The position numbers and the translations under genes were made by a program. DNA of 64,000 bases, taken from contig JAJDBP010000014.1 of the NCBI GenBank assembly GCA_029261295.1, positions 8,474 to 72,473 of the forward strand, read 5' to 3'. This DNA is from Nitrospirales bacterium (lineage in GTDB: Bacteria > Nitrospirota > Nitrospiria > Nitrospirales > UBA8639). The stretch's first letter is position 1, and each line of letters opens with the position of its first letter. The notes under the pieces were generated by a model that saw only the letters and a program-made list of their open reading frames with translations, made no database searches and had not been told where the DNA came from. Below, one piece after another: positions 35,707 to 58,179 of the stretch.

Positions 35707-37455
35707 ATGTTCTTGTTGAAGAAAACCATACTCGTTTTCCTGCTGTGGCTTTCAGCCTGTGGCCTACCCACCCTGATCTGGGCATTGGATACCGCGCCGT
35801 TTGACGTGGATGGGGATTCCGTCACCAATCCCATGACCGATGCGCAAATGATCATGCGCAAAATGATGGGTCTGGATGGGGCTGCCCTTACCGATGGCGT
35901 CGTGAATCCCGCTGGAACGCGCACCGATCCGGATGAAATCAATACCTTCCTTGAAGCCAATCTATTAAGTCCTGAAGACCACTTAACTATTACCGCAGTG
36001 TTTGTCGACGTGAACAATGGGACGCTCACGATCAAAGGAAAAAATTTTGACATCATCAATGTGCCATTAGAAGTCACACTTGAGGAATTAGGAATATTAA
36101 ATGTCGTAGGAGTATCAACCGCCATTGAGGTCGTTGCCGATTTGCCAGCTGGAATTCTTCCTGGAGACTATGTTCTTACCCTTTCAAAAGGTGAAGCTCT
36201 GAGTCAACAAGACTCATTCGATTTGACGATAGGGCAAGGTGCGCAAGGACCTGAAGGCCCGGAAGGACCACCTGGCCCCGAGGGTCCTCCCGGACCGGCG
36301 GGAACATCCAATCTGATCAATATGCGTTGTCCACCCGGACAGGTCATTTATGGATTTGACCAAATAGGTGGAATTTTATGTGCAGATGCCGCAATCGGTG
36401 CGCCAACGCTTCCACCAATCGCCAACCTTTTACCGGGCGACTTGATCATCACTGAGATTATGGCTAATCCTTCCGGCATCAATGCCGAACGAGAGTGGTT
36501 TGAAATACATAATGTCTCTGGCAAGAATTTTGACCTCAATGGAATGGAAATTCTTATCAATGGCACCAATGCGTTGACCCTGACTTCCGCAGTTTCTCTC
36601 CCTTCAGGAGGCTTTCTCGTCATTGGCCGGAACCAGGACCCTCAGGTGAATGGGGGCCTGGCTGTGGATGTCGTCATAGCGGCCACACTTTCCAATACAG
36701 ATAGTTCGATTGAATTACGGAACGGATCTGCCTTAATCGATCAGGTTACGTATACCACGCCAACCTGGCCTATTATTTCTGGTCGAGCCTTACAATTTTC
36801 TGGCACCACCGCCACTGAAAACGATGATGTGGGTTTTTGGTGCGTGGCCTTTGATGTTTATGGAGACGGGGACTTCGGAACACCTGGTGTCACAAACCCT
36901 ACATGCCCAGATATCTCCATTTCCAACCTCTTACCAGGCGACTTGGTCATCACCGAAATAATGGTCAATCCTTCAGGATCGGATAACGGGCGAGAATGGT
37001 TTGAAATACAGAATGTTTCTGGAAAAAGTTTTGACTTGCAAGGGCTGGAAATTCTCATCAACGACAACAATGCGTTGACCATCCCCTCCTCCGCGTTCAT
37101 TCCTTCAGGAGGATTTCTGGTGTTTGGTCAAAGTCAGGATGTCAACGTCAATGGAGGCCTACTGGTCAATTTCCTCTTCACAGCACCACTACCCAATACA
37201 GGCGGATCGATCGAACTCCTCAACGGATTGATTTCCGTGGATCGTGTGGCCTATTCATCCGGCTGGCCCCTTGTAGTAGGAAGCGCCATGAGTTTCGGTG
37301 GAAACGATGCCACACAAAATGATAATGCGGCCTTTTGGTGCGCGGCAACAATGACATATGGCGATGGAGATTTGGGGACACCCGGCAGTCTCAATCCTCT
37401 TTGCAGTCAATCCCTCCTAAATTCTCAAGAGGGCAAACGAAAAAGATTGCGGTGA
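35707..37455 (+). CDS. Collagen-stalk exported protein, head type A. Domain order is signal peptide, single dockerin-like repeat, IPT-like beta domain, short collagen triple helix, 2x lamin-tail domains (LTD), and a basic tail.
   Basis: 582 aa starting at ATG, preceded by GGGAGG. The dockerin-like repeat is [54 protein letters not shown]. The IPT-like segment is LTITAVFVDVNNGTLTIKGKNF. The collagen tract is [24 protein letters not shown]. The LTD motifs are LPGDLIITEIMANPSGINAEREWFEIHNVSGKNFDLNGMEI and LPGDLVITEIMVNPSGSDNGREWFEIQNVSGKSFDLQGLEI. The protein ends EGKRKRLR. Confidence 0.85.
   Translation: MFLLKKTILVFLLWLSACGLPTLIWALDTAPFDVDGDSVTNPMTDAQMIMRKMMGLDGAALTDGVVNPAGTRTDPDEINTFLEANLLSPEDHLTITAVFVDVNNGTLTIKGKNFDIINVPLEVTLEELGILNVVGVSTAIEVVADLPAGILPGDYVLTLSKGEALSQQDSFDLTIGQGAQGPEGPEGPPGPEGPPGPAGTSNLINMRCPPGQVIYGFDQIGGILCADAAIGAPTLPPIANLLPGDLIITEIMANPSGINAEREWFEIHNVSGKNFDLNGMEILINGTNALTLTSAVSLPSGGFLVIGRNQDPQVNGGLAVDVVIAATLSNTDSSIELRNGSALIDQVTYTTPTWPIISGRALQFSGTTATENDDVGFWCVAFDVYGDGDFGTPGVTNPTCPDISISNLLPGDLVITEIMVNPSGSDNGREWFEIQNVSGKSFDLQGLEILINDNNALTIPSSAFIPSGGFLVFGQSQDVNVNGGLLVNFLFTAPLPNTGGSIELLNGLISVDRVAYSSGWPLVVGSAMSFGGNDATQNDNAAFWCAATMTYGDGDLGTPGSLNPLCSQSLLNSQEGKRKRLR
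36232..36303 (+). repeat. Collagen-like G-X-Y tract (8 triplets)
   Basis: The sequence ggg caa ggt gcg caa gga cct gaa ggc ccg gaa gga cca cct ggc ccc gag ggt cct ccc gga ccg gcg gga translates to [24 protein letters not shown]. Confidence 0.9.
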
Positions 37456-37567: not shown

Positions 37568-38698
37568 ATGAAAGGCAATTATCTGTTGAGCAGACTTTTA
37601 TACCTATGGCTTTTGCTTTTACCCATCCCCTCCTTGACCTGGGCGCTGGATACGGCGCTCTTTGACGTCGATGGGGATTCGGTTGCCAATCCCATGACCG
37701 ATGGGAATCTGATCATGCGAAAAATGTTAGGGCTAGAAGGAACCGCCCTCACCGATGGCGTGGTGAATCCTGCCGGTTTACGTACCGAAGAGGATGAAAT
37801 TAATGCCTTTTTGGAAGCCAGCATGTTGGCCCCGGCGGATCACTTAACGATTACCGAAGTGTTGGTGGACCTAGAGGCAGGAACGCTAACCATCACCGGC
37901 CAAAATTTCCCCATGGGAACCGACCCGATTGTCTTGCTCGGAAATGATACCGTCCCTCTCGGTCTAAGCGGTGTCCCAATGGAAATGGAAATTATTGCAT
38001 TTTTACCGACGCCGGTCATCAATGGGGACTACCTGCTGACCGTTTCGAAAGGTGACGCCCCATCCGAGCGAGATTCATACAACATTACGATTGGTCAAAG
38101 TCCACCTGGCCCCGAAGGGCCAGAAGGTCCTCAGGGGCCGCAAGGATTTCCCGGGGTCCAAGGACTACAAGGACCGGAAGGAGCACAAGGACCTCCAGGC
38201 CCAGCCGCAGATGGCTCCGTACCAATTGACGAATCAGATGCACCTACCGAAGAAATGATTTTTATGAATATTGATGATGGTGCAATTAAGGGAAACGCAA
38301 TCACTTCCGGATATGAAGAGCAAATCGTGGTGGGCTATGTCATGTATGGTGTCGCTCAGGCTGGAGAATGGGAAGAGGGAGAACAAATCACCGGAAGAAT
38401 CACCACCTTTGGCGAATTTCAGATTGTAAAAAATGTCCAAATTGGGAACGGGACTCCAGAATTATTATTCGCCTCCGCAAATAAAACCCAATTCGACAAA
38501 GTTGAGATTAACTTTGTGACGGGAAATGATGCCTATGCGACCATTTCTCTTGAAAAAGTTATCATTACAAGTGACACCGTAAAATTTGATCAGGAATTTA
38601 CCTTGCCAATTGAAATTGTCAGCCTATCGTATCGGAAAGCCACCTGGCGTGTTGGAACAGCAACCACTTCCTATAATCTTGAGGCCGCTACCGACTAA
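37568..38698 (+). CDS. Collagen-stalk exported protein, head type B. It has the same N-terminal module as 35707..37455, a longer collagen helix, and a C-terminal Hcp-like (T6SS tube-protein-fold-like) domain.
   Basis: 376 aa with the signal peptide LLYLWLLLLPIPSLTWA. The dockerin-like repeat is [53 protein letters not shown]. The IPT-like segment is LTITEVLVDLEAGTLTITGQNF. The collagen tract is GPEGPEGPQGPQGFPGVQGLQGPEGAQGPPG. The C-terminal domain is IFMNIDDGAIKGNAITSGYEEQIVVGYVMYGVAQ...GRITTFGEFQIVKNVQIGNGTPELLFASANKTQFDKVEINFV...ISLEKVIITS...PIEIVSLSYRKATWRV. It follows the Hcp1 pattern I.G......H...I.V.s.s.g..q ... dl.f.K..D..sP.L ... v.l.f ... L..v.i.s ... E.v.L.y.k. Confidence 0.7.
   Translation: MKGNYLLSRLLYLWLLLLPIPSLTWALDTALFDVDGDSVANPMTDGNLIMRKMLGLEGTALTDGVVNPAGLRTEEDEINAFLEASMLAPADHLTITEVLVDLEAGTLTITGQNFPMGTDPIVLLGNDTVPLGLSGVPMEMEIIAFLPTPVINGDYLLTVSKGDAPSERDSYNITIGQSPPGPEGPEGPQGPQGFPGVQGLQGPEGAQGPPGPAADGSVPIDESDAPTEEMIFMNIDDGAIKGNAITSGYEEQIVVGYVMYGVAQAGEWEEGEQITGRITTFGEFQIVKNVQIGNGTPELLFASANKTQFDKVEINFVTGNDAYATISLEKVIITSDTVKFDQEFTLPIEIVSLSYRKATWRVGTATTSYNLEAATD
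38108..38200 (+). repeat. Collagen-like G-X-Y tract (about 10 triplets)
   Basis: Translates to GPEGPEGPQGPQGFPGVQGLQGPEGAQGPPG. Confidence 0.9.
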
Positions 38699-38775
38699 GG
38701 GGAAACAATCAAAAATTCCTATAACCACCATCCCTGTTAAGCCTAAACATCTCTCTCACACAAAAAGGACCGCAT

Positions 38776-39444
38776 ATGAAACATACATTTATTCAACAGG
38801 TCATCATCAGCACTTTGCTGTTTTGGAGTGGATTGTATCCCTCGTTTGCCGCCCCATCACCACAAAATATCTTGATAAATATTGGAGAGGGTGCCATTCC
38901 TGGAAATGCAACCGTACCAGGATATGAAAATCAAATCGTCGCCCAAAACTTCTCTTTTGCTGTCTCTCAACTTGGCGAATGGGAAGAGGGAGAACAAATC
39001 ACCGGGAGAGTGACCATTTTTTCGGACTTCACCTTTAGCAAAGAGCTGGACGGTGGAAGCCCAGCTCTTGCTCATGCATCAGCGTTAAAAACGCAATATA
39101 ATAACGCTGTTCTCACCTTTCTCGATACGACGGGAGAACCAATTATCACCGTCACCTTAGAAAAAGTCATTGTCACTAGTGTGGGAATAAAAATGAAACC
39201 AGGTGCAACGAGACCTCTTGAAGTCGTAACATTATCCCATCGCAAGGATACTTGGGAGAGTGGTCAGTCATCTACTTCCTATGACCTTGAAGCGGCATCC
39301 GCGCTAACCGGTGAAATCAGTTCCGCATTAACCGCTCCTACCGGGAGTTCCGCCTTGCTGGATTCCACCACCGAAACCAGCTCCACCGATTCGAACCCTC
39401 TCAGGCAACCTAACAAACGAACCAAAAGAACGAGGACACGATGA
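38776..39444 (+). CDS. Sec-signal-bearing stand-alone Hcp-like domain protein with an S/T-rich linker and a polybasic C-terminal tail
   Basis: 222 aa with the signal peptide VIISTLLFWSGLYPSFA. The domain is ILINIGEGAIPGNATVPGYENQIVAQNFSFAVSQLGEWEEGEQITGRVTIFSDFTFSKELDGGSPALAHASALKTQYNNAVLTFLD...VTLEKVIVTS...PLEVVTLSHRKDTWES. It is paralogous to the C-domain of 37568..38698 and shares GEWEEGEQITGR. The tail is TSSTDSNPLRQPNKRTKRTRTR. Confidence 0.7.
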   Translation: MKHTFIQQVIISTLLFWSGLYPSFAAPSPQNILINIGEGAIPGNATVPGYENQIVAQNFSFAVSQLGEWEEGEQITGRVTIFSDFTFSKELDGGSPALAHASALKTQYNNAVLTFLDTTGEPIITVTLEKVIVTSVGIKMKPGATRPLEVVTLSHRKDTWESGQSSTSYDLEAASALTGEISSALTAPTGSSALLDSTTETSSTDSNPLRQPNKRTKRTRTR

Positions 39445-39585: not shown

Positions 39586-40815
39586 TCAGGTATTGAAGGG
39601 AAGTTCTTGTAGGCCTAATTCTTTGGCGGCTCGACGAAGGGCATAGAGATGCGGGCCTATCCATGCTAACAAGAACGTCCCTTCGCACGCGGGGACAGTG
39701 TCCATGTTACTGATCACGTCTTCCAACATCTTTCGGGACAATTCGACATAATCCAATTCTGTTGAGCCAGCTCCCAACATGGGGAACAGAATCGTGCGGA
39801 GATCAGGACGTTCTTGGGCCAAATGCTCAAATTGCCCAAAGACATTCCGAATACAATCATCCAGCGAATCCTCGTTAGTATGATACCCATCTCCCACCGA
39901 CCCTTGCATAGCCGCAATATGAAAAACATATTTAATGCCGATAGACGACAATTGGTTTGTCGGTGTGGCAACCACTGTCCCAGTGGCAAAAGGAGGGGTC
40001 ATCCCTAAGGTCTGAATTTCTTGTTGAAGTTGCGCTTGAAGCGTATCGCGAAGAATTCCACCACCAGGCGTTTTTTCGGCATCACGGTAGCGCAGAGTCC
40101 CAGAAAGCCAGGGATCATAGTACCGCGCAAGCTGGAAATTCGTCGATTCTAAACTGACGATCACATCCGCGCCAAAATCCCCGATTTCTTTCACATCACC
40201 CGTCACAAAGGTAATCGTCCGCTTCGGATCAGAGGGCAAGGCATAGCGACTATCCTTACCCACCGGCAAGGGCTCTGGACGGGCATGGGCAATAAAGGTT
40301 TGTAGGATTTTTTCATAGCCCAGTTGCGGCCCATAGCCATAGGTTTGAAATAACCCTTGAGCATCCCAGCCCTCTTCATGGAGATTCTGGAGTTGCTCAA
40401 ACACCGCATCGGAATACACGCCTCGGATCAGATCTTTGACCGGTTGAAATTGGTAGGAGACCGACCGAGTATCTCTCACATCAAAAGGGAGTGATTGAGG
40501 GCTTTCAATCAGAATAATCACCGGGCGAGCTGCGGCTTGCGCGACGGCCAATTCATAAAACACATTCGGGTTATGATCGGTCAGAATCGCAATACAGAGA
40601 TCCGAGTGAAGAATCTCATCAAACATCTGCCGGGTAATCGTCCCGATATGATCAATGTGGTCGGCGCGAATGGCTTCAATCTCGATCGAAAACTCGTCTT
40701 TGAACTTCTTCAACGCCTTCTCAATAATAAATTCAAACACATCATCCGCATGATGACGAATAGTCGACCCTTCTTCGCCAATCGGACTAATCACAAAACA
40801 GCGTTTTTTGATCAT
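39586..40815 (-). CDS. Cytoplasmic two-domain protein: an N-terminal nucleoside 2-deoxyribosyltransferase-like (TIR/SLOG-superfamily-like) domain and a C-terminal Macro-like domain
   Basis: 409 aa starting at ATG, preceded by AAGGAAA, with no signal peptide. The N-domain landmarks are CFVISPIGEEGS, IRADHI, SDLCIAILTDHNPNVFYELAVAQAAARPVIIL. The C-domain landmarks are ITFVTGDVKEIGDFGADVIVS, ATGTVVATPTNQLSSIGIKYVFHIAAM and RTILFPMLGAGSTELDYVELSRKMLE (macro-type G.i..D.iVn / G.a..T / iH / s.afP..GtG). Confidence 0.6.
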   Translation of the reverse strand: MIKKRCFVISPIGEEGSTIRHHADDVFEFIIEKALKKFKDEFSIEIEAIRADHIDHIGTITRQMFDEILHSDLCIAILTDHNPNVFYELAVAQAAARPVIILIESPQSLPFDVRDTRSVSYQFQPVKDLIRGVYSDAVFEQLQNLHEEGWDAQGLFQTYGYGPQLGYEKILQTFIAHARPEPLPVGKDSRYALPSDPKRTITFVTGDVKEIGDFGADVIVSLESTNFQLARYYDPWLSGTLRYRDAEKTPGGGILRDTLQAQLQQEIQTLGMTPPFATGTVVATPTNQLSSIGIKYVFHIAAMQGSVGDGYHTNEDSLDDCIRNVFGQFEHLAQERPDLRTILFPMLGAGSTELDYVELSRKMLEDVISNMDTVPACEGTFLLAWIGPHLYALRRAAKELGLQELPFNT

Positions 40816-40950: not shown

Positions 40951-43119
40951 CTATCGTAGCGAACGCTTCCTTTCCCTTTTCTGTCGTTTAGCATGCCCTT
41001 TTTTCTTTCCACGCTGAGTTGGAGGATCTTGAATTTCCGGCTCAGACGTGATGGTAAGCTCTAAACTGTCAGTCAGCGCGGAATCCGGGGATGCAAGATC
41101 TACGGAGGTGCTCACCGCCTCACTCGTGCCGGCCGTTGTCAGCCGACTTCCGGTCGACTCAGCCCCAGGCAGAAACCCACTCAGAAATGCCACAATTGCG
41201 GAGGCCGTGGTCCGCGTCGCACCCACCCCCAGCCCATTGGCCAAGACACTGTCGCTCGTGATGCCAAACAAAAACGCGGTGATAATCTTGCAATCAAACG
41301 TATCTGCCGTGCCATTCCCATCGGCATCCAGCATGCCCAGCGGCTCCACCCCCAGGAGATACGTCATAATCAGTTGCGGGTCGGTGCGCCCGCCGGTAGA
41401 GTCCACCACCCCGGCTGCCACATCCGCTGGATCGGTAATCGCCGGATCCAGATACCGGCAGATCATCGAGCCATCCCACACATTGGTTTCGCTATTAATA
41501 TCAATATCAAAAGTCATCCGTTGGAATGTTTGTTGGGAAACGGGATGAATGGGGTTCAAGGCGAGGTCAAGAACATTGTTTACGGTCAGGGTGTAGCTCA
41601 CTCCTTCAGCAAGAGGAGTTGTGGCAAGAAGGACCGTCACGCCATCAGATTGAAGAGCTGCCTGAAGGATGGATATTCCAGGATCTATAGAGAAGTTACT
41701 GGCGGTCTCAGCACTGCCTCTCTCCAATGGTTCGCTAAAAGTCACGGACACGAGGGTTGGATTACCGGCAGCCATCACATCCAAGATCGTTGGCCCAGAA
41801 ACATCTGATCCTGTGGGAACCAATTTCAGCACTTCCCCTGTTTGCCGCCCGATATACAGCTCTCTGTCTTCATCCTCGCCCCAGGTGATATCGCGTTGGG
41901 GAATAAGCTGCGCACCCGTCGGTTCGATAGCAATCAATTCCAGCTCCCCCGTATTGATATCCATCGCCACCAATTCGGCTGCCACAAAATCAAAGAAAAT
42001 ATATTTACCAAATAATGGTGGCAGCGCTGACCCTCGATACACAAAGCCGCCTATCACAGACCCGAACGCCTTGGTGGTACCATTGTGATCATATTCCGCT
42101 AACGGTGGGGTGAACGCTGGATTAGGTGAAGGATCAACTGTCGCATTCCCACTCACTGGGTCCCAAAGAAAACTCCCCTCCTTCAGATTCCATCCATAGT
42201 TTTTTCCCAACTCTAGGCGCAAAATGGATTCAATCGTGAAATCTCCATTCGTGCCCGTGTACATATCTCCCGTCAGACGATCAGAGGAAATACGCCAAGG
42301 ATTACGAACACCCCAAGCAAATATTTCCGGCACATTTCCGCCTGCTCCATCCGCGAAAGGATTATCAAACGGAATCGTATAACGACCATTGGGTCCAATA
42401 GTATCGACATCGATGCGGAGAATACTTCCATAAGGATTCGTCGTTTGTTGGCCAGTCGTGTGATGAGGAGTCGGCGTGCCAAATGGCGTCGCGCCGCCAT
42501 CGCCAAATGACACATACAAATAACCATCACCGCCAAACGCCAAATCATTCATATTATGTCCGCCGTTAGGCTGGTGCACACGCAGCAATTCTCGTTGAGA
42601 ATCTTGGTCAAACTGGTCAGGATTTGTCGCGTCGACTTGAAATTCAAACAACACGTTATCAAATGCAGAAGACGTATCATCTTGGGGAGGGCTGTAGTCT
42701 GGCGTAGCCCCGTTTGGAACGGCTTCGCCGGAAATCACGTAGAGTTTGCCATTAGTGGCGTAATCTGGATGAAAGGCCATGCCCGACATCGCAAACCCTG
42801 AAGGGGCTGCTGGAATATTCAGGAAGGGTGAGGGACGCAGTGCGCCGTCTTTGAATATACGAATGATCCCGTTTGGCGAGACAAGAAAAAGTCGTCCGCT
42901 CCCATCCCCTGCATTCGTAATATCGAATACCGCACTGGGGTTAACGGACACCACCTGTTCCAATTTGATGGTGTGAGGTCCAAGCGGAATATCGGGCAGT
43001 AGATTGTTTCCATCCCCGACCGCTCTGGCTGACACCGGAGCCAGGCTCACTATCAAGCCAATAACAACCAGCAAGAATTTCAGGGATGAGGTATAGAATG
43101 GCATAGCTATCTTCTTCAA
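40951..43119 (-). CDS. Exported PQQ-dependent sugar dehydrogenase-like beta-propeller with an SbsA-Ig-like domain, a dockerin-like pair and a polybasic tail
   Basis: 722 aa. GSDH landmarks are GDGSGRLFLVSPNGIIRIFKDG, MSGMAFHPDYATNGKLYV, HNMNDLAFGGDGYLYVSFGDGG, YGSILRIDVD, YTIPFDNPF, EIFAWGVRNPWRISSDRLTGDMY and KNYGWN. The Ig-like segment is TLVSVTFSEPLERGSAETASNFSI. The dockerin-like pair is FDIDINSETNVWDGSMICRYL and LDADGNGTADTFDCKIITAFLFGI. The protein ends QRGKKKGHAKRQKRERKRSLR. The start is TTG 43119 or ATG 43104. Confidence 0.85.
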   Translation of the reverse strand: MKKIAMPFYTSSLKFLLVVIGLIVSLAPVSARAVGDGNNLLPDIPLGPHTIKLEQVVSVNPSAVFDITNAGDGSGRLFLVSPNGIIRIFKDGALRPSPFLNIPAAPSGFAMSGMAFHPDYATNGKLYVISGEAVPNGATPDYSPPQDDTSSAFDNVLFEFQVDATNPDQFDQDSQRELLRVHQPNGGHNMNDLAFGGDGYLYVSFGDGGATPFGTPTPHHTTGQQTTNPYGSILRIDVDTIGPNGRYTIPFDNPFADGAGGNVPEIFAWGVRNPWRISSDRLTGDMYTGTNGDFTIESILRLELGKNYGWNLKEGSFLWDPVSGNATVDPSPNPAFTPPLAEYDHNGTTKAFGSVIGGFVYRGSALPPLFGKYIFFDFVAAELVAMDINTGELELIAIEPTGAQLIPQRDITWGEDEDRELYIGRQTGEVLKLVPTGSDVSGPTILDVMAAGNPTLVSVTFSEPLERGSAETASNFSIDPGISILQAALQSDGVTVLLATTPLAEGVSYTLTVNNVLDLALNPIHPVSQQTFQRMTFDIDINSETNVWDGSMICRYLDPAITDPADVAAGVVDSTGGRTDPQLIMTYLLGVEPLGMLDADGNGTADTFDCKIITAFLFGITSDSVLANGLGVGATRTTASAIVAFLSGFLPGAESTGSRLTTAGTSEAVSTSVDLASPDSALTDSLELTITSEPEIQDPPTQRGKKKGHAKRQKRERKRSLR
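41165..41517 (-). repeat. Copy A of a ~350-bp near-duplicated C-terminal dockerin-like module (partner at 43440..43785)
   Basis: The protein segment FDIDINSETNVWDGSMICRYLDPAITDPADVAAGVVDSTGGRTDPQLIMTYL...GMLDADGNGTADTFDCKIITAFLFGITSDSVLANGLGVGATRTTASAIVAFLSGFLPG matches the neighbouring gene. There are long identical DNA runs, for example aatcttgcaatcaaa and gtgccattcccatcggcatccagcatgcc versus gtgccattgccatcggcatcaagcatgcc. Confidence 0.8.
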
Positions 43120-43214: not shown

Positions 43215-44363
43215 TTAACGGCGTCTCGTTTGTGTTCGCTTGCTTCGTTTATGACGACTCTTCTTCTTTGCACTCGACGGCTTCGTGACCTTTACTGGCT
43301 CGATCGTCTGGCTGATTAGAGGCTGCTCCAGCACAATCGAAGCTGTCGTTTCCGACGTAAGGGCGGAAGCCAGCGATTGAACATTCGAGGGAGTTGAGAC
43401 GGTCACTGCTTCCGGCGTACTCACCGCCCCACCCATGCCTGGCAGAAAATCCCTGAGAAAAGCCAGTAACGCATCAGCCGTTGTGCGAGTGGCACCCGAT
43501 CCCAGCCCATTGGCAAATAAACTATCACTCGTGATGCCAAACAAAAATGCCGTAATAATCTTGCAATCAAAATGATCCGATGTGCCATTGCCATCGGCAT
43601 CAAGCATGCCCCGCGCCTCTGCCACCGACAAGTATTCGGTAATTTTTTTGGGGTCCGGACGGCCGCCAGAAGGATCGACGAGCCCTGCTCCTACTTGTTC
43701 CGAATCCGTGATGGCAGGGTCCAGATATCGACAAATCATGGACCCATCCCACACATTCCCCTCGCCATTTAAATCAAGATCCCAGGATAGCACCAAGGGC
43801 CGCCATGCTGTTTCCACGCCATAGCTAATAGACCCGGATTGGTTTCGAAAACTGATCCAGCCCGTGTTCTCACTCCAAGCCCGACCATTAAAATCTCCGG
43901 TGGCGGGATCAATGGTCACCCCATAGTTTTTTGTCGAGCAAGCGTTGGTATTGCTGCAGGAAAAACTAATCCAACCGACGTTTTCACTCCAGGCATAACC
44001 AGCAAGATTTCCTGCCCCATCATTGGTTACGCGATAGTCCCGAGATAGACACGTGCGATTATTCAAACACGACAAACTCACCCAACCCGTGTTCTCGGAC
44101 CAGAGATAGCCGGACACCCCATCATCTTCCACAAACATGCCCGGGCCGCCATCGCCGCCCGGTTCGGCATTCAGCCAACCGGTGTTTTCACTCCAGGCAT
44201 ATTGCGCCCCACTATCATCCGGATCAATATTGTCACTGGCCAGCGCCAGAGAACCTGACAGGCCCAGTACCAAAACTGCACTAAGCACCACCTGAATCCC
44301 ACATTGTTTTGAATGAGTCATGATGCCCTCCGTCTTATCAAACGATTTTTGTTCACTCCACAT
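43215..44363 (-). CDS. Exported protein with 4x W-S-E-N-x-G-W repeats, a dockerin-like pair and a polybasic tail
   Basis: 382-aa ORF. The probable start is ATG 44321, preceded by ACGGAGGG. The signal peptide is VVLSAVLVLGLSGSLALA. The repeats are YAWSENTGWLNA, YLWSENTGWVSLSC, YAWSENVGWISFSC and RAWSENTGWISF. The dockerin-like pair is WDLDLNGEGNVWDGSMICRYL and LDADGNGTSDHFDCKIITAFLFGI. The protein ends SSAKKKSRHKRSKRTQTRRR. Confidence 0.8.
   Translation of the reverse strand: MWSEQKSFDKTEGIMTHSKQCGIQVVLSAVLVLGLSGSLALASDNIDPDDSGAQYAWSENTGWLNAEPGGDGGPGMFVEDDGVSGYLWSENTGWVSLSCLNNRTCLSRDYRVTNDGAGNLAGYAWSENVGWISFSCSNTNACSTKNYGVTIDPATGDFNGRAWSENTGWISFRNQSGSISYGVETAWRPLVLSWDLDLNGEGNVWDGSMICRYLDPAITDSEQVGAGLVDPSGGRPDPKKITEYLSVAEARGMLDADGNGTSDHFDCKIITAFLFGITSDSLFANGLGSGATRTTADALLAFLRDFLPGMGGAVSTPEAVTVSTPSNVQSLASALTSETTASIVLEQPLISQTIEPVKVTKPSSAKKKSRHKRSKRTQTRRR
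43440..43785 (-). repeat. Copy B of the near-duplicated C-terminal dockerin-like module (partner at 41165..41517)
   Basis: See copy A. By eye the two copies are about 75-85% identical at the protein level over ~115 aa, whereas the N-terminal parts of the two genes are unrelated. Confidence 0.8.
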
Positions 44364-44398: not shown

Positions 44399-44989
44399 TC
44401 AATATTCCGTCATTGGCCCTCCACCACGGACACACCAGGTTAATGCCTCGGAGCTAACCTGGAATATCGCAACACCAGGGTTGAATATCACGAGCCGATG
44501 AAGCCCCGAAGCCCTGTGAGAGGTCGCTGACCAATAGCTGCTCAGTTGAATATTGATAAATGGATGTTCAGGGGGCAACAGCGGTCCAGGCACTCCGGCG
44601 GAGGGATCTACCAGACTCAGAGCTTCATGTATGCTCGGCAACCGCCAACCTTTCCGCCCCCCTATCGACACATTGAGGCAGTGAGTCAGAGCACTTTCTA
44701 CAGTTCTTTCAGTGGAATCCGGCCTCCGTTGCCACACCAAGCCAGTCTCTATGTCCAAGACTCCGAGATTTCCCATCACTAACTTGAAGCGCTCATCGGC
44801 CGGCAACTTTTGATCCCACGACGGCTGTGTTTGCGTCGTGGCCGTTGGCTCGCCACTGCCATTCACCGCCGAGCCCGGAGGCTCCAAATCGCCGCTTTGC
44901 GCCTGCGCCGTGCTGATCCCGACTCCAAGCCCTATCATGACACTCAACAACATCTGCAGTCCGATATGTTTTGGTGTTAGCTTCATCAT
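44399..44989 (-). CDS. Secreted DUF1566 (Lcl C-terminal-type, lectin-like fold) protein, paralog 1 of 7
   Basis: 196 aa starting at ATGATG, preceded by AAGGAG, with a signal peptide. The conserved leader is GDLEPPGSAVNGSGEPTATTQTQPSWDQKLPADERF. DUF1566 landmarks are TGLVWQRRP, GGRKGWRLPSIHEALSL, HPFINIQ, YWSAT and WCVRGGGP. Confidence 0.85.
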   Translation of the reverse strand: MMKLTPKHIGLQMLLSVMIGLGVGISTAQAQSGDLEPPGSAVNGSGEPTATTQTQPSWDQKLPADERFKLVMGNLGVLDIETGLVWQRRPDSTERTVESALTHCLNVSIGGRKGWRLPSIHEALSLVDPSAGVPGPLLPPEHPFINIQLSSYWSATSHRASGLHRLVIFNPGVAIFQVSSEALTWCVRGGGPMTEY

Positions 44990-45079
44990 GTCTCCTTTCT
45001 TTTTTTATGACGAGAAGGATTTTCTCCACACTCACGTCCCTCACGCCTCACGTTTGCCCCACCACTCCTTACGGCTTGT

Positions 45080-45760
45080 TCAATATTCTGACAACCCCCC
45101 GCCACCGCGCACACACCAGACCCTACGACTTCGATTTTTGGTGACAGTTTCGATTCTCACAAAACCAGCAGCCGCAGTCCAAGCTTTCTCAGGTTCGTCA
45201 GCAACAGTTGTCGATGACCAATGTTCAATTTCGGCTGGAATGGTAAACGGATGATCACCCGGAATTTGGCCATTAGGAAGGATGAGGCTCTGCAGTTCAA
45301 TGAGTGATGGTAATCGCCAGCCCAGACGGCCACCTGTTCCCCGCAGCGCACAATGTCGGCGAGCATCAACTGGTGCAACTGCACGCGATTCCCAAACATG
45401 CAAAACGGAATCTGGTGTACGTTCCCATACGCGCCCGGTTTCTTTATCCAACACCGCAGCCCCGTTGGGGTGTGCGCCAAATTGACCAGTGGGCCAAATG
45501 CATTTAAACCGAGTGGAATTACACCCATCCACTCCTCCATTATCCGCCCGCAACCACTGATCCCACGAAGGCTGCGTGGGCGTGCTGGCCGTGGGATTGC
45601 CCGATCCGTTGACTGCTGAAGTTGGCGGTTCCAAATTGCCTGCCCCGGTCGCCGCGGGCGGCGGTAACGCCACTTGCGCCTGCGCCACGCTGACGCCAAA
45701 TCCTAGCCCCAGCACAACAGAAAAAATTACTTCCAAACTCACTCGTTGTAAAATAATCAT
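45080..45760 (-). CDS. Secreted DUF1566 protein, paralog 2 of 7
   Basis: 226 aa starting at ATG, preceded by AGAGGGA. Landmarks are GNLEPPTSAVNGSGNPTASTPTQPSWDQ, a Cys-containing insert GGVDGCNSTRFKCIWP, TGRVWERTP, GGRLGWRLPSLIELQSL, WSSTT and VWCVRGGGG. Confidence 0.85.
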   Translation of the reverse strand: MIILQRVSLEVIFSVVLGLGFGVSVAQAQVALPPPAATGAGNLEPPTSAVNGSGNPTASTPTQPSWDQWLRADNGGVDGCNSTRFKCIWPTGQFGAHPNGAAVLDKETGRVWERTPDSVLHVWESRAVAPVDARRHCALRGTGGRLGWRLPSLIELQSLILPNGQIPGDHPFTIPAEIEHWSSTTVADEPEKAWTAAAGFVRIETVTKNRSRRVWCVRGGGGLSEY

Positions 45761-45829
45761 GATTCCCTCTGATTAGGTAAAAAATTTATTGTTCCTGCCA
45801 CACGCGACCTGCTTCCCAATATTTGGACT

Positions 45830-46516
45830 CTACTGAGCAACACCCCCACCTCGGACGCACCAGAAAAAATGATCCTGTGTCTTAGCCAAGGAACCCACGC
45901 CCCCATCGGAGAAATTCACGTACCCAGCAAACAAGTCGGGATTCTCCTCCGGGAGTAAAACAGCGGGGGACGCGGACCAATAGGCAGAATTTTGAATGTT
46001 GCCAAAGGGATGACCAAGTGGAAGCTTCGGACTGCCGGAATGAGTCATATCCAGCAAGCTGGCCAACTCGTAACGAAACGGCAAACGCCAGCCTTTCCTC
46101 CCGGCGACATTGAGGGTTCCGCAATCATGGCCAGAATCCCACCATTCCTGAGCGAGGTCGGAGGGAAATCGTTGCCAGGTCAAGCCCGTGTCTTTATCCA
46201 ACACCGCAGCTCCGTTGGGATGCCCGAATAGCCCGGTGGGCCAAATACATTTAAATCGTGTGGAATTACAGCCATCCACCCCACCATTATTGGCTGGCAG
46301 TTTTTGATCCCAAGAGGGTTGCGTGGGCGTGGTCGCAATGGGATTGCTCGACCCGTTGACGGCCGAGCCCGGCGGCTCCAAATTGCCCGCGCCGGTCGCC
46401 GCCGGCTGGGGGCCTGGCACAATAATAATTTGCGCCTGCACGCTAGCCGCGAATAACCCAACACTCACACTCATAGGGATCAGAATATTGATTATTGATT
46501 TTGGCCAATTGCACAT
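45830..46516 (-). CDS. Secreted DUF1566 protein, paralog 3 of 7
   Basis: 228 aa. Landmarks are GNLEPPGSAVNGSSNPIATTPTQPSWDQKLPA, GGVDGCNSTRFKCIWP, TGLTWQRFP, GRKGWRLPFRYELASLL, HPFGNIQ, YWSAS and FWCVRGGG. Confidence 0.85.
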   Translation of the reverse strand: MCNWPKSIINILIPMSVSVGLFAASVQAQIIIVPGPQPAATGAGNLEPPGSAVNGSSNPIATTPTQPSWDQKLPANNGGVDGCNSTRFKCIWPTGLFGHPNGAAVLDKDTGLTWQRFPSDLAQEWWDSGHDCGTLNVAGRKGWRLPFRYELASLLDMTHSGSPKLPLGHPFGNIQNSAYWSASPAVLLPEENPDLFAGYVNFSDGGVGSLAKTQDHFFWCVRGGGVAQ

Positions 46517-46548
46517 GATTCAACACCCCGTGGTTAGTAAAAAAATGA

Positions 46549-47208
46549 TTAATAATGCGTCAACGGTCCCCCACCGCGCACACACCAAGCCCGTAACGTA
46601 TCAGAACTATTATGACGTTGAAGAAATGTAAGATCTTGAAAATCCATGAGCCAATATCGGGAAGGATCTTGAATATCCTGAGTGGCAGACCAATAAAAAT
46701 TGCCAATGTTTTGAAATGGATGTCCCACTGGAAGGTCGGGATTACCGGTCGGATTGTTGGGGTCCATCAGACTGAGTAACTCGTGAATAGAGGGAAGACG
46801 CCAGCCCAACTGGCCACCGGTTATTCGTCGCAAACAATGCTTGCGAGCACCATAAGGTAGATTAGGATTATTCAGCCCAAAATGACTGCTGGTAGCAGGT
46901 GATTTCTCCCACACGATTCCCGTGTTTTTATCCAATACAGCATCACCGCCCATTACTAACTTGAATCGCTCTGCTGTTGGCAAATCTTGATCCCACGACG
47001 GCTGCGTCTGCGTCGAAGCCGCTGGATTGCCATTCGTATCTACCGCCGTCCCCGGCGGGTCCAAATTGCCACTTTGCCCCTGCGCGAGACTTACACCTAC
47101 ACCGTAAAACACCAAAAGACTGAACAACACCTGCATCCCAAATGGTTTTACAATAATCATGATGCCCCCAAATTTTTTCATTCCATAAGAAACGGACAGT
47201 GATCCCAT
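46549..47208 (-). CDS. Secreted DUF1566 protein, paralog 4 of 7
   Basis: 219-aa ORF. By analogy with its siblings the likely start is ATG 47160 (MIIVKPFGMQVLFSL...), preceded by GGGGG. Landmarks are GNLDPPGTAVDTNGNPAASTQTQPSWDQDLPTAERF, TGIVWEKSP, GGQLGWRLPSIHELLSL, HPFQNI, YWSAT and AWCVRGGGP. Confidence 0.85.
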   Translation of the reverse strand: MGSLSVSYGMKKFGGIMIIVKPFGMQVLFSLLVFYGVGVSLAQGQSGNLDPPGTAVDTNGNPAASTQTQPSWDQDLPTAERFKLVMGGDAVLDKNTGIVWEKSPATSSHFGLNNPNLPYGARKHCLRRITGGQLGWRLPSIHELLSLMDPNNPTGNPDLPVGHPFQNIGNFYWSATQDIQDPSRYWLMDFQDLTFLQRHNSSDTLRAWCVRGGGPLTHY

Positions 47209-47220
47209 ACGTATCGACGT

Positions 47221-47880
47221 TTAATATTCTGACAACGGCCCGCCACCGCGGACACACCAGACAAAGGAGAGGTTCGTCTTCGTAAAGGTACCGACGTTAC
47301 CATTGCCGAAGCCTACGACCCACGCATCCGAGGGCAACGCCGCATTCGTCGTCGCCGACCAATAAAGAGATGTGAATTGAATGTTGTTAAACGGGTGGTT
47401 CACAGGAAGCGCCGGATTGAGTTGATCGGCATCTACCAGGCTCGCCAACTCCTGCATTGACGGAAGCCGCCAGCCTTTCTGTCCGCCGCCTGTGCGGTGG
47501 TTCGCGCATTCTAGTCGCGCAAATGTCCAATTAAGCCTGTCTGCCAGGGTGATACCGAGCACACCATCAGTCTCGCCGGGCGACAGCTCCCAGACCAATC
47601 CAGTATTTTTGTCTAACACACCCCAGTCCTCGATCGCGACGGGACCACCGTCGCCACCGATTATTCTCGTCAGTACTTGAAAGCGTTCATTAGCTGGCAA
47701 GAGCTGATCCCAGGACGGCTGCGTCTGCGTGGTCGGGGTCGGGTCACCGCGCCCATTCACCGCCGTGGACGGTGGCTCTAAACTGCCACTTTGCGCCAAC
47801 ACCACGCTCCCGCCACATCCGTATGCCACCACCACACTCAGCAATAATTGTATCCCCACTCGTTTAGAAGTATTCATCAC
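47221..47880 (-). CDS. Secreted DUF1566 protein, paralog 5 of 7
   Basis: 219 aa. Landmarks are GSLEPPSTAVNGRGDPTPTTQTQPSWDQLLPANERF, TGLVWELSP, GGQKGWRLPSMQELASL, HPFNNIQ, YWSATT and VWCVRGGGP. Confidence 0.85.
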   Translation of the reverse strand: MMNTSKRVGIQLLLSVVVAYGCGGSVVLAQSGSLEPPSTAVNGRGDPTPTTQTQPSWDQLLPANERFQVLTRIIGGDGGPVAIEDWGVLDKNTGLVWELSPGETDGVLGITLADRLNWTFARLECANHRTGGGQKGWRLPSMQELASLVDADQLNPALPVNHPFNNIQFTSLYWSATTNAALPSDAWVVGFGNGNVGTFTKTNLSFVWCVRGGGPLSEY

Positions 47881-47910
47881 GATTGCTCCATCGGCCTAAG
47901 ATTACTCACC

Positions 47911-48546
47911 CTATTTTCCTCGCACACACCAAAACAATTCTTGATTTATCACGGCATTACTCGTGGTACCCGTCCTGCCGGTCTGAAAATCCACTAGTCT
48001 CACACCTATCTGGCTGAACGTCGGATCCAACGTGGCTGTCCAGTACCTCTGGCCTTGAACGTTCAGAAACGGATGGCCAGGAGGGAGCGCAGGCGGACCA
48101 CCTGAGGGGCAGTTATTACAAATATGGTCGGCGTTCACGAGACTCGCTAATTCATGTACTTCCGGAAGTCGCCATCCCAATCTGCCACCCACCTTGCTGC
48201 TAGTACATTGGTTGTACGCAATATTCCATGACATGAAGGAAGCCTGCGGCGTCCGTTCCCATACCAAGCCGGTCTCGCGATCTAGCACACCCCAATCGTC
48301 AAACGCGATGGGGCCCCCACCGCCGCCGAGTATTCTGGTCAACACTTGAAACCGTTCGCTAGTTGGTAAGAGCTGATCCCACGACGGCTGCGTTTGCGTG
48401 GTCGCCAACGGATCGCCACTGCCATTCACCGCCGAAGCCGGCGGCTCCAGATTGCCACTCTGCGCCTGTGCCACACCCACACTCACGCCTAACCCTAGAA
48501 GGAGGCTCAACCACACCTGGAGTTTCAATTGATAAAAACTTGTCAT
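47911..48546 (-). CDS. Secreted DUF1566 protein, paralog 6 of 7
   Basis: 211 aa starting at ATG, preceded by TGAGGG. Landmarks are GNLEPPASAVNGSGDPLATTQTQPSWDQLLPTSERF, TGLVWERTP, GGRLGWRLPEVHELASL, HPFLNVQ, YWTAT and FWCVRGK. Confidence 0.85.
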   Translation of the reverse strand: MTSFYQLKLQVWLSLLLGLGVSVGVAQAQSGNLEPPASAVNGSGDPLATTQTQPSWDQLLPTSERFQVLTRILGGGGGPIAFDDWGVLDRETGLVWERTPQASFMSWNIAYNQCTSSKVGGRLGWRLPEVHELASLVNADHICNNCPSGGPPALPPGHPFLNVQGQRYWTATLDPTFSQIGVRLVDFQTGRTGTTSNAVINQELFWCVRGK

Positions 48547-48624
48547 AATGCCCTCATATAAATAATAAAAAAAAGACTAATTCTTTTACATCCTGCCATC
48601 TCACCGGACATGCTCACTCCATGG

Positions 48625-49908: not shown

Positions 49909-52164
49909 TTGACTTATTTCATGGCTTTAATAAGGATAGGGGCAGTTGGGGGCACGAATGCTTGGGGCTTTTTGCTCCCCCATCAGGAGACCCGGGATGG
50001 ATACCGTTCCGGGTCTGCCATTTCAAAACGAAATGCCTCATGGTTTCCCATCCCCTCATCAACACCAAGGAGCCACGACATGCTTGTCACACCCAGCCTA
50101 TGCCGTACCCCACGATCTTCTGTTTTCATTCTGATGGGACTCATCTGTTTGCTGCTCACCACCTCACTGGCTTTCGCCAAAAAACCCACGACGGCCACGA
50201 ATGATATTGACGGCGATCGAGTGGTGAATCCCATGACCGATGCGCAAATCATTTCGCGGCATGCGATGGGTCTACGCGGCCAAGCCATGGTAGACGGGGT
50301 GGTCAACCCGGCAGGTACGCGCACCGATCCACAAGAAATTGAAGCTTATCTGGATGCCAATGCCGTGGCTCCTGATGAGTTCCTGACAATTTCGGAAGTG
50401 CTGGTGGATCTGGTTAATAAAACCTTGACGATTACTGGCCGCAATTTTCTGTCGGTCACCGACGCTGAAGTGACACTCGGCACGGATGCCGTGCCCCTGA
50501 GCCTGGCAACCGTACCAACAGATACCGAGATTGTGGCGAACCTTCCGGCAGGACTCGCGGATGGCGATTATTTATTAGCGATGTCTACAGGGGAAGCCCC
50601 CAGTCAGAATGACAGTTATTCCCTCACTATTGGCGAAGGTCCAGTCGGACCGGAAGGTCCTCCCGGCCCCGAAGGGCCACAAGGGATTCAAGGTGGACCG
50701 GGACCGCAAGGTCCAATTGGGCCACAGGGGCCCGAAGGCCCCTTAAACCCTAACGTCTTAACGGAAAGTAATAACACCGCCGTGGGATTCAATACCTTGT
50801 CCAGCAACACGACGGGTAGTTCCAACACCGCGTTCGGAGCAGAGGCCTTGAGTGCGAATACAACGGGTGATGACAACACCGCCCTGGGAAGAAATGCCTT
50901 AGTCGCCAATACCATGGGGACACTCAACACGGCCGTGGGGTCCTCAGCCTTGCGCAAAAACACCACGGGCGGTAACAACACCGCTGTGGGAACCTTCGCC
51001 TTAGGAGTCAATACTACGGCGTTAAACAATACCGCTGTGGGAAAAGAGGCTTTAGGTGCCAACACAACCGGCGGTAACAACACAGCTGTGGGATCTGTTG
51101 CTTTGCGTAACAATACCACCGCCTTTAGCAACACCGCTCTGGGAACCGCGGCCATGAACCTTAACACGACGGGCAGTAACAACACTGCCATTGGAGCATT
51201 TACTTTACTCCTTAATACTTTAGGGGATAGCAACACCGCTCTGGGAACCGCGACCATGAACCTTAACACGACAGGCAGTAGTAATACTGCCATAGGAACA
51301 AGTGCCTTAGCCGCCAACACCACGGGGAATCAGAACCTCGCTGCGGGATCCTCTGCCTTACGCACCAACACCACGGGTGATAGCAACACCGCCATGGGAG
51401 ATCAAGCCCTGCTTTTCAACACCACAGGTCGTATCAACACTGCCGTGGGAGATTCCGCCTTGAGCAGCAACACGACAGGGATCGACAATATTGCGGTTGG
51501 AATTAGTGCCGGAACAAATCAAACGACAGGAAGTCACAATATCTACCTTGGAAATTTTGGCGTTGCCGAAGAGTCAGGACACATGCGTCTTGGTCAACCT
51601 GGCTTCCAATTCCAAACATTTATGGCTGGCATTCGGGGAGTGACAACTGGCGTCAATAATGCAGTTTCGGTCATGATTGATTCCGCTGGACAACTTGGGA
51701 CGGTTTCCTCTTCTCGTCGATACAAAGAAGACATTCAGGATATGGCCGAGGTAAGTGCGCGGATACTCCAATTGCGACCAGTCACGTTTCGCTATAAAAA
51801 GGCCTTTACTAATGAAATAAAGCCCATCCAGTATGGCTTAATCGCTGAAGAGGTGGCGGAGGTCTATCCCGATTTGGTGGTCTATAACGCGAAAGGCCAC
51901 GTCGAAACGGTGCAATATTATAAATTGATCCCACTCATGCTGCATGCCGTGCAACAACAAGAGACACAGTTGCAAGAGGAACACGACACCAATCGCCACC
52001 TGCTCTCGCAACTCCAAGAACAAGCAGAAGAACTGCAAGATCTCCGTTCAGCACTCACATTCGTACAGAAGCAGAATCGCCAACTGCAAGATCTGAGGGC
52101 GCGCCTTGTCAAATTGGAATCGCAACTCGAAACTCGTTCATTCCTGCAAGCGCAATTGCCCTAA
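49909..52164 (+). CDS. Collagen-stalk exported protein, head type C. It has the same N-terminal module, a collagen helix, about 19 copies of a 14-residue tail-fibre/YadA-head-like beta-helix repeat, a peptidase S74 intramolecular-chaperone auto-processing domain, and a coiled coil.
   Basis: The ORF is open from TTG 49909. The probable start is ATG 50080 (AAGGAG at 50066-50071), giving [33 protein letters not shown]. Landmarks:
- Dockerin-like repeat: [53 protein letters not shown].
- IPT-like segment: [22 protein letters not shown].
- Collagen tract: [36 protein letters not shown].
- Head repeats: NTA(V/L/I)G..AL..NTTG...
- S74 motif: [12 protein letters not shown]...LRPVTFRYK...[19 protein letters not shown]...[11 protein letters not shown]. 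Confidence 0.85.
50632..50739 (+). repeat. Collagen-like G-X-Y tract (about 12 triplets)
   Basis: Translates to [36 protein letters not shown]. Confidence 0.9.
50770..51555 (+). repeat. About 19 tandem copies of a 42-bp (14-aa) repeat encoding NTA-x-G-x2-AL-x2-NTTG-x2
   Basis: The translation reads [74 protein letters not shown] and so on. The antisense 211-aa ORF 50688..51323 is a shadow of this periodicity. Confidence 0.9.
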
Positions 52165-57587: not shown

Positions 57588-58179
57588 CTCGAATTTTTAC
57601 CCATCCAACAACACGCATAAACTCAAGTAAAGGAAGAAGAACTGTAGACCACCCTATTTCATTTGTCGAGAAAAACGAAACAGGTTCCCAAAAAAAAATG
57701 AGCTTCGGGGATATGCTCCCCCTCATACGAACTATAGAGTTCTCCTGTTTTCATTGCAGGTTCTTCCAACTCCGTCTCTGTCTTCGTGAGCATGTTGAGA
57801 TGAGGAGGAAAATCGAAAACAAATTAAGACACAATATGGAATCCAAGCCGACTGCTCACCCCATCTTGGTCACTTCTGGAAGTGGTTAATTAAATATTAG
57901 CTGGATTTTCCCCAGATTGATGCAAGCCAGACACTTGCAGGCCTAACGGGCGTAGTAGGTAGCCCTACATAGGTGTTGCTTGAAAATTTCTTAATGTTTC
58001 GCTTTATATTTTACATGCCATACCCCTCATTGGAACTAGCAATCAGACCGTGTGTCGTCCTTGGCCAGCCTCTTCAGTTCATCAGATTGACATCCTGTAA
58101 GGTTTTCGTATCTTATATTACATTTCTTGCATTTGGTGACTTCAATTCACCGCCTTAATCTATATAAGGGAGCTCTCCG

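Follow-up and report, generated by a model that had tools for sequence, protein, structure and literature searches.

Two Hcp domains with predicted Sec leaders, one on a collagen-like stalk and one free with a polybasic tail, in a locus where no type VI secretion genes were found

Two adjacent genes in a 64-kb stretch of contig JAJDBP010000014.1 (the whole stretch is referred to as the window) were analysed, each of which encodes a domain of the Hcp family of type VI secretion system (T6SS) tube proteins. The first encodes a protein of 376 amino acids (aa) in which the Hcp domain follows a predicted Sec leader, two further modules and a short collagen-like run, and the second a 222-aa protein made up of a predicted leader, a free Hcp domain and a polybasic tail. 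The analysis indicates that both Hcps are very probably exported and independent of a T6SS. The whole is best explained by a T6SS-independent, Sec-exported assembly of recycled Hcp, an explanation that we hold with slightly better than even confidence. Both genes lie on the + strand, 77 bp apart, and the fusion protein ends one residue past its Hcp domain. The features of the pair are as follows.

37568..38698, + strand: fibre gene, 376 aa (open reading frame (ORF) list, Pfam T6SS_HCP, AlphaFold2 model; same architecture in orthologues P0058, P0059, P0060 and P0062)
37568..37645, + strand: predicted Sec leader of the 376-aa protein, residues 1-26, cleavage after TWA (sequence layout)
37646..37843, + strand: DVDGD...NPMTD module, weakly dockerin/EF-hand-like, residues 27-92 (occurs in several scaffold relatives)
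37844..38095, + strand: IPT/TIG-like Ig domain, residues 93-176 (AlphaFold2 model; Pfam TIG in orthologues P0058 and P0059)
38108..38206, + strand: collagen-like run of 11 GXY triplets, residues 181-213 (counted; Pfam Collagen below cut-off)
Residues about 214-227 of the 376-aa protein: acidic linker of about 15 residues
38249..38692, + strand: Hcp domain of the fusion protein, residues 228-375 (Pfam, own profile, Foldseek)
38776..39444, + strand: free Hcp gene, 222 aa, with leader and basic tail (ORF list, Pfam; linker and tail alike in P0002 and P0294)
38776..38850, + strand: predicted Sec leader of the 222-aa protein, residues 1-25, cleavage after SFA (sequence layout)
38863..39300, + strand: Hcp domain of the free protein, residues 30-175 (Pfam, own profile, PDB sequence matches)
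39301..39441, + strand: 47-residue C-terminal extension of the 222-aa protein, a Ser/Thr-rich linker followed by NKRTKRTRTR at 39400..39441 (composition)

The identity of the two domains was established by profile, sequence and structure searches. BLASTP paired residues 225-375 of the 376-aa protein with residues 26-175 of the 222-aa protein at 73/152 identities (48%, E 2e-43), and the motif GEWEEGEQITGR was found in both paralogues. Pfam T6SS_HCP (PF05638, gathering score 23.5 bits) matched residues 232-361 of the 376-aa protein (62.3 bits, E 7.4e-17) and residues 39-161 of the 222-aa protein (72.7 bits, E 4.5e-20), while our own Hcp hidden Markov model found a single Hcp domain in each, with E 5.7e-49 for the fusion domain and E 8.4e-46 for the free protein. 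The cut-off of NCBIfam TIGR03344 (TssD), 58.9 bits, was not reached by the window Hcps, which scored 31.1 and 30.2 bits. In the AlphaFold2 model of the 376-aa protein the Hcp part (residues 230-370) had a predicted local distance difference test score (pLDDT) of around 90. Foldseek comparison of this model with the PDB returned Hcp1 (1y12) first, with E 2.6e-11 and a template modelling score of 0.77 on the target, and the first 50 matches were all Hcp structures or Hcp fusions. The PDB sequence matches of the window Hcps were Hcp proteins as well (9qpe, 1y12), and from these together with the 48% identity to its paralogue it follows that the 222-aa protein is predicted to have the Hcp fold. 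The original prediction had recognised Hcp-like paralogous domains by eye. This was borne out by Pfam, BLASTP, PDB sequence matches and Foldseek, and no other beta-sandwich family emerged from the profile and structure searches.

Both proteins had also been claimed to carry N-terminal signal peptides. The leaders, MKGNYLLSRLLYLWLLLLPIPSLTWA with cleavage before LD in the 376-aa protein and MKHTFIQQVIISTLLFWSGLYPSFA with cleavage before AP in the 222-aa protein, were read from the sequence; each has an n-h-c layout, with a basic n-region followed by a hydrophobic core, and small residues at -3/-1. Residues 1-29 of the 376-aa model have a pLDDT below 50. Equivalents of the 376-aa leader are present in the relatives P0058 and P0059 and in the neighbouring 582-aa paralogue, and leaders stronger than that of the 222-aa protein occupy the same position in P0003, P0294, P0292, P0055 and the partner protein of locus L101. 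Alignment showed that the leader stops exactly at the canonical Hcp start, (M)A(I)EQNGFLNIG, and leader-shaped N-termini at this start were also found in P0003, P0048, P0053, P0055, P0292-P0294, P0298-P0302, P0328 and P0330. The leaders of these relatives, more than a dozen in number, are mutually non-homologous, and P0326 has a lipoprotein-type leader. Layout and recurrence in relatives thus support the predicted signal peptides in both proteins.

A reading in which the leaders are annotation artefacts, wrong starts giving false leaders or the genes being decaying remnants of a lost T6SS, was weighed against these observations. It draws on the leader core of the 222-aa protein, which is moderately hydrophobic (maximum Kyte-Doolittle 2.0 over 10 residues), and on an in-frame TTG at codon 33 of the same gene, the sole alternative in-frame start near the Hcp body. 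This TTG is however without a Shine-Dalgarno-like sequence, and a start there would delete the first strand. Furthermore, neither ORF is disrupted, several metagenomes contain conserved and equally intact orthologues of both, leaders recur independently in many relatives, and the Hcp domain of the 376-aa gene is in frame with 225 confidently folding upstream residues, inside a fusion protein whose other modules are typical exported ones. The recurrence of leaders in relatives and the lack of a ribosome-binding site at codon 33 rule out that the leaders are start-codon artefacts, and artefact or decay as a general explanation is scarcely credible.

Loss of a conserved cysteine is a further feature of the leader-bearing type. 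The cysteine at position 76 of P0015 is invariant in 16/16 leaderless Hcps examined, whereas 11/18 leader-bearing or fused Hcps have another residue there, in most cases Ser (Fisher p 1.3e-4). The window Hcp domains are without any cysteine, the equivalent residues being about 303 in the 376-aa protein and about 101 in the 222-aa protein. Such a loss is the pattern expected on a move from the cytoplasm to an oxidising compartment. Cleavage, actual export and the final location of the two proteins, periplasm or cell surface, are predicted on the basis of these sequence features.

The Pfam scan of the window covered every ORF of at least 150 aa and a large ORF that leaves the window end, and no T6SS families were found among these in the 64 kb, in agreement with the absence of T6SS genes noted at the outset. 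What the scan did return were PEP-CTERM proteins, PKD/Big giants, peptidases of the M10, M36 and M8-like types, GSDH and an array of seven Lcl_C genes in tandem; nearly every neighbour is a surface-type protein with a leader. PEP-CTERM (PF07589) is present in at least three neighbouring genes and was not matched in either window Hcp protein. Derivation of the locus from a phage tail or tailocin was weighed and discarded, as the window contains no phage structural genes and leaders are present on all of these proteins.

The two Hcps might nevertheless still be T6SS parts, specialised for a system encoded elsewhere, with N-termini that stay uncleaved and are not leaders. Consistent with this, the NCBI pipeline names the orthologue P0002 as a T6SS tube protein, related Nitrospirales genomes hold T6SS clusters together with several orphan Hcp genes, and the genome beyond the 64-kb window may encode a T6SS. 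Known specialised Hcps are, however, extended C-terminally and not N-terminally (PMC8262886), and a 225-residue N-terminal TIG-collagen trimer would fit badly into stacking within a sheath-enclosed tube. The small residues at -3/-1 of the leaders, the lost cysteine, the exclusively surface-protein neighbourhood in four loci and the scores under the TssD cut-off likewise argue against a T6SS role, which is regarded as very improbable.

The nearest relatives of the window domains, at about 56-63% identity, are leaderless Hcps of about 150 aa from Nitrospirales/Nitrospirota metagenome-assembled genomes. The leaderless P0015 is encoded directly after VipA/VipB in a complete T6SS cluster (TssK, DotU, IcmF, TagF, ImpE, ImpA), and the same placing of Hcp after VipA/VipB was found in nine further reference-genome loci; the GTDB genomes scanned, among which that of the window is not represented, returned canonical Nitrospirales Hcps only. 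The nearest named orthologue of the 222-aa protein, P0002, has 'Nitrospirota bacterium' as its source. Judged by these relationships the window Hcps are a recent offshoot of working T6SS tube proteins, probably inside a Nitrospirota organism, and as an offshoot of T6SS Hcps of the same lineage their exaptation is traceable. The idea that the Hcp fold was exapted as an exported module is supported by the Hcp identity, the leaders, the T6SS-like ancestry and the lack of T6SS genes nearby. The most conserved Hcp elements, the loop GEWEEGEQITGR and LEKVI(V/I)T, remain near-invariant in both paralogues.

The part of the 376-aa protein that precedes the Hcp domain is shared with other fibre proteins, of which one is encoded immediately upstream.

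35707..37455, + strand: upstream paralogous fibre gene, 582 aa, with the leader/N-module/TIG/GXY scaffold, two lamin-tail (LTD) domains as head and a polybasic tail of its own

The TIG-like domain (residues 94-175) is all-beta with a pLDDT above 90 in the AlphaFold2 model. The N-terminal DVDGD...NPMTD module is common to the 582-aa and 751-aa window proteins, P0058, P0059 and P0061; its assignment as a dockerin was sub-threshold (PDB 1ohz_B, E 0.63; Pfam Dockerin_1, E 0.00097 in one member) and was not adopted. A collagen stalk had been claimed for the 376-aa protein, and 11 uninterrupted GXY triplets were indeed counted at residues 181-213. Pfam Collagen gave 20.3 bits for this protein against a cut-off of 27.2 and was above cut-off in the orthologues P0059 and P0062, the length of the run differing among orthologues. 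In the monomer model the run has a pLDDT of 43-58, as expected for a single chain; in the fibre it would form a trimeric triple helix. Three window fibres contain 8 (582 aa), 11 (376 aa) and 12 (751 aa) triplets and differ in their heads: the 582-aa protein ends in its two lamin-tail domains (Pfam LTD, E 3.7e-24), and the 751-aa protein (49909..52164, + strand) has a Peptidase_S74 chaperone domain on the shared scaffold. In databases, the scaffold is also found with tail-collar, Lcl_C, FGE-sulfatase and other heads. Hcp is therefore one interchangeable head on a generic exported stalk. In the solved structures 4ksr, 6ap1 and 7o42, proteins fused to the N-terminus of Hcp1 are ring assemblies, and the topology of the natural fusion is therefore compatible with a ring. 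Lipobox-like LSAC/LLGC sequences were observed inside the leaders of the 582-aa protein and of the orthologue P0058.

Canonical Hcp is leaderless and cytoplasmic and forms homohexameric rings, as in Hcp1. The original prediction had held that a trimeric stalk clashes with such rings. The symmetry problem it raised was taken up here, but the clash itself appears to have a plausible solution in the adjacent free Hcp gene, which is conserved. In fact, a collagen-Hcp gene is followed directly by a gene for a leader-bearing free Hcp in 4/4 loci, namely the window, L002 (P0059 and P0003), L003 (P0062 and P0048, with an LTD protein upstream as in the window) and L101 (P0058 and a partial partner that is 75% identical to P0294). 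VipB or other T6SS genes were not found around the pairs in L002, L003 and L101. Within each of the four pairs, the two partners show matching divergence from canonical Hcp (76/77, 70/73, 59/59 and 46/53%). Contig L100, on which the closest orthologue of the 222-aa protein is encoded, is syntenic with the window and with L003, as it shares a macro-domain gene with the former and a haem-oxygenase-like gene with the latter. A promoter and terminator scan at the gene pair gave results at chance level that have no bearing on the question of an operon.

In more distant relatives, a pair of tandem Hcp domains stands behind a leader, TIG and collagen. Each of the two Hcp domains of P0100 (L004) passes Pfam singly (E 4e-10 and 1e-10), P0190 also has two Hcp domains behind collagen, and a second, weaker Hcp domain is present in P0085, P0116, P0095 and an ORF of L036. 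The AlphaFold model of P0100 is moderately confident (mean pLDDT 61). When full-length P0100 was used to search for homologues, collagen repeats dominated the results and one true relative was gained (P0190), and a metagenome scan with the collagen pattern GPQGPQGF gave mostly unrelated collagen-like genes, L036 alone being useful. In the two loci inspected (L004 and L036), there was no free Hcp gene within 10 kb of the two-Hcp collagen gene. Exactly six tandem Hcp domains are found in each of P0300 (2164 aa) and P0306 (1099 aa), every domain with E 1e-27 to 1e-36, and these may possibly represent single-chain Hcp rings in secreted giant proteins. The two giants, which lie outside the window, also have dockerin-like repeats or an N-terminal EPLEPRTLLS motif. 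Two tandem Hcp domains also occur in the lipoprotein P0326. Each of the architectures 6x1, 3x2 and 3x(1+1) sums to six domains, which lends indirect support to a six-membered ring, and it is on this account that a ring completed by three free subunits is proposed for the window pair.

Separate assembly of two exported proteins would be another way to satisfy the symmetry. Here two collagen trimers would meet head-to-head to give a homohexamer and thereby cross-link fibres, the free Hcp would form rings or tubes of its own tethered by the tail, and the adjacency of the genes would reflect nothing more than co-regulation. The homohexameric state of canonical Hcps (e.g. Hcp1, PDB 1y12), the ring-forming core motifs kept by both paralogues, and the occurrence of free leader-bearing Hcps without a collagen partner (L005 and many others) are all compatible with this. 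What it leaves unexplained is that the free gene stands beside the single-Hcp collagen gene in all four pairs and is absent beside two-Hcp collagen genes, and that the partners diverged in parallel. Separate assembly is considered unlikely, if a genuine contender.

It is also conceivable that the exported Hcp acts as a monomeric beta-barrel in a ligand-binding or adhesive head, three per fibre in a C1q- or Scl-like manner, with the free paralogue as a soluble or tail-anchored binder. The stalk does carry heads that need no six-fold symmetry (LTD, Peptidase_S74, tail collar, Lcl_C), T6SS copies evolve more slowly than exported ones, and there are lineage-specific strand substitutions such as QIVVGYVMY in the fused type. 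Against this stand the near-invariance of the loop and of LEKVI(V/I)T described above and the multi-domain relatives, which have exactly two Hcp domains behind a trimeric stalk or exactly six, numbers that are hard to explain without a six-membered ring. A monomeric role therefore appears improbable.

The favoured Sec-exported assembly of recycled Hcp would have arisen as follows. A leaderless T6SS tube protein of a Nitrospirales-type lineage would have been duplicated, one copy becoming the C-terminal part of a modular fibre (leader, dockerin-like module, TIG, short collagen-like stalk) while the other gained a leader of its own plus, in this lineage, a Ser/Thr-rich linker with a polybasic end. 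After export across the inner membrane the GXY run would trimerise and present three Hcp domains, and three free Hcps would fill the alternate positions, closing a six-membered ring as the head of the fibre. Through electrostatic attraction the three basic tails would keep this head attached to an anionic surface, be it lipopolysaccharide, membrane or acidic matrix; the Hcp fibre would in this manner receive in trans, from its free partner, a basic tail that the LTD fibre (582 aa) has on its own chain. The product would be a structural or adhesive envelope fibre, one of several in the locus that have a shared stalk and differing heads. The 3+3 ring of stalk-borne and free Hcp is offered tentatively, its chance being placed somewhat below even.

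The polybasic tail of the 222-aa protein, described as such in the original prediction, was confirmed by count: 7 of the last 14 residues are Lys or Arg (K/R), they follow a Ser/Thr-rich linker of 33 residues, and there is no hydrophobic segment before the tail. Other basic tails were seen in P0055 and P0056. Within the window, six leader-bearing proteins have such tails, with 5-9 K/R in the last 15 residues and no preceding hydrophobic segment. They are encoded at the following positions.

619-3348, + strand: polybasic-tail protein
20806-22617, - strand: polybasic-tail protein
35707-37455, + strand: polybasic-tail protein (the 582-aa LTD fibre)
38776-39444, + strand: polybasic-tail protein (the free Hcp)
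40951-43119, - strand: polybasic-tail protein
43215-44363, - strand: polybasic-tail protein

This corresponds to 6/41 window ORFs, compared to one leader-bearing case among 202 ORFs of other Nitrospirales loci (p 1e-4). The tail-bearing proteins differ from the adjoining PEP-CTERM proteins, and no known sorting signal in Pfam or NCBIfam matched the tail. Polybasic tails may represent an undescribed retention or sorting tag. That the tail is an electrostatic tether to an anionic surface is a guess from its composition, which we see as a reasonable possibility short of a probable one.

Several observations weigh against the proposed assembly. Export of the window Hcps is inferred from leaders that were judged from sequence, and the 3+3 ring is inferred rather than shown. 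In a diderm cell the fibre would also have to cross the outer membrane. The stalk is short, at 11 triplets, and falls below the Pfam Collagen cut-off. The counts behind the stoichiometry are small, being 4 pairs, about 6 tandem proteins and 2 six-domain proteins. Neighbour-joining bootstraps for the fused and free clades are weak (22/60 and 36/60); an ancient paired duplication is consequently not claimed, and the L003 pair may be a separate recruitment. P0053 in L005 is a free leader-bearing Hcp without a collagen partner, so the free protein may not need the fusion, and the pair partners P0003 (L002) and P0048 (L003) are without a basic tail, which is thus not essential to the pair. Elsewhere in the genome, beyond the 64-kb window, there may be a T6SS.

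Other genes of the window were characterised alongside the pair. A 409-aa cytoplasmic protein adjoining the Hcp pair (39586-40815, - strand) carries a macro domain at its C-terminus, and its N-terminal part weakly resembles a nucleoside 2-deoxyribosyltransferase; its gene is syntenic at 6115-7344 of L100, the contig of P0002, and may be unrelated to the Hcp pair. Seven tandem paralogues of 196-228 aa (44399-49290, - strand) have a leader, a conserved LEPP..AVNG..PSWD segment and an Lcl C-terminal domain ending in WCVRGGG. They are preceded by a 382-aa protein that has a leader and a polybasic tail and gave no Pfam match (43215-44363, - strand). A giant ORF of at least 1944 aa starts at 58168 (+ strand) and runs beyond 63999, leaving the window end; being open-ended, it is missing from the ORF listing. 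It has an N-terminal LESLEPRILLS, a leishmanolysin-like M8 region, a galactose-binding-like domain, Big_5 domains and a (GPN)8 run. A leader-bearing Peptidase_C39-like protein of 259 aa (13807-14586, + strand) is followed by a leader-bearing 454-aa protein with an HTH_17 match (14592-15956, + strand), an odd combination for exported proteins.

Judged by the sequences of the relatives described above, exported Hcp-domain proteins appear to be more widespread than this window. Rings of such Hcps could constitute building blocks of the envelope or the extracellular space that are independent of a T6SS and have not been recognised as a class. The six-membered ring would be kept in them as 6x1, 3x2 or a 3+3 tethered by polybasic tails, and the window pair would be a natural split form of a pseudo-hexameric hub that evolved recently from a working T6SS tube protein. 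We regard this wider view as speculative and lean against it for the present. The results suggest that a central component of a contractile injection system can be given an ordinary leader and reused as a module of a surface or envelope fibre, its ancestry being traceable to T6SS Hcps of the same lineage. They would also offer natural solutions for the matching of three-fold and six-fold symmetry, parallel to that of VgrG/gp27. For protein engineering based on Hcp1 ring scaffolds they provide natural examples that are predicted to be secreted, are cysteine-free, and are either stalk-mounted or possibly single-chain. In this organism, exported proteins may be retained in a manner not yet described, as hinted by the polybasic tails that recur without a transmembrane segment on leader-bearing proteins. 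The orthologue P0002 (NCBI MDH5574706.1), which bears the tail and is probably exported, is publicly named 'type VI secretion system tube protein Hcp'. With such pipeline naming, Hcp counts in metagenome surveys can overstate the presence of T6SS.

Compared with known systems, the window Hcps are closest to the T6SS Hcp/TssD proteins encoded after VipA/VipB (P0015, P0041), with which they share the fold, the loop GEWEEGEQITGR and the C-terminal SYRKATW strand. The T6SS proteins are leaderless, bear the cysteine and are encoded in a T6SS cluster, whereas the window Hcps have leaders, no cysteine and no T6SS neighbours within 64 kb, and one of them is fused at its N-terminus to a fibre, while the other ends in a basic tail. 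Specialised Hcp-ET proteins have C-terminal toxin extensions and conserve the core residues whatever the extension (PMC8262886). Their toxin is delivered C-terminally via the T6SS, whereas the large extension in the window is N-terminal and structural (TIG and collagen). No effector domain follows the Hcp core in either window protein, the extension of the 222-aa protein being 47 residues of low complexity, and as the extensions of specialised Hcp-toxins are C-terminal the window Hcps do not belong to these. The same survey removed Hcp genes carrying PEP-CTERM in its Methods and does not mention a collagen-Hcp fusion with a paired free subunit (PMC8262886). The PEP-CTERM Hcps are likewise Hcp domains bound for export, but the window Hcps are without PEP-CTERM. 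Apart from this filter (PMC8262886), the literature searched contained no description of leader-bearing, collagen-fused or six-fold tandem Hcps.

The window fibre shares a leader, a GXY stalk and a globular non-collagen domain with collagen-like surface proteins (Streptococcus Scl1/Scl2, Legionella Lcl, Bacillus BclA) and with C1q-type proteins, and by analogy the globular domain could register the triple helix. NCBIfam similarity of the window fibre to Lcl and Scl is weak and extends over the GXY run only. In contrast to Scl, Lcl and BclA, the head is an Hcp, the stalk is very short and TIG and dockerin-like modules stand at the N-terminus. Neither window Hcp protein has an LPXTG or Lcl C-terminal anchor, Lcl_C being confined to seven other window genes.

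Regarding symmetry, the hub formed by VgrG or phage T4 gp27 is a trimer with two tube-like domains per chain that gives a pseudo-hexameric ring. The collagen relatives with two Hcp domains, P0100 and P0190, would solve the three-fold/six-fold mismatch in a similar manner. The window differs from VgrG/gp27 in having one Hcp domain per stalk chain, the second being supplied in trans according to the proposal, and in lacking a spike, PAAR or sheath. Engineered Hcp1 scaffolds (GspE-Hcp1 4ksr/4kss, Vps4-Hcp1 6ap1 and TrwK-Hcp1 7o42) resemble the window topology in that an N-terminal passenger is carried and the ring is kept. They are artificial, cytoplasmic and built of six identical chains, whereas the window pair is natural and is proposed to form an exported trimer completed by its free partner.

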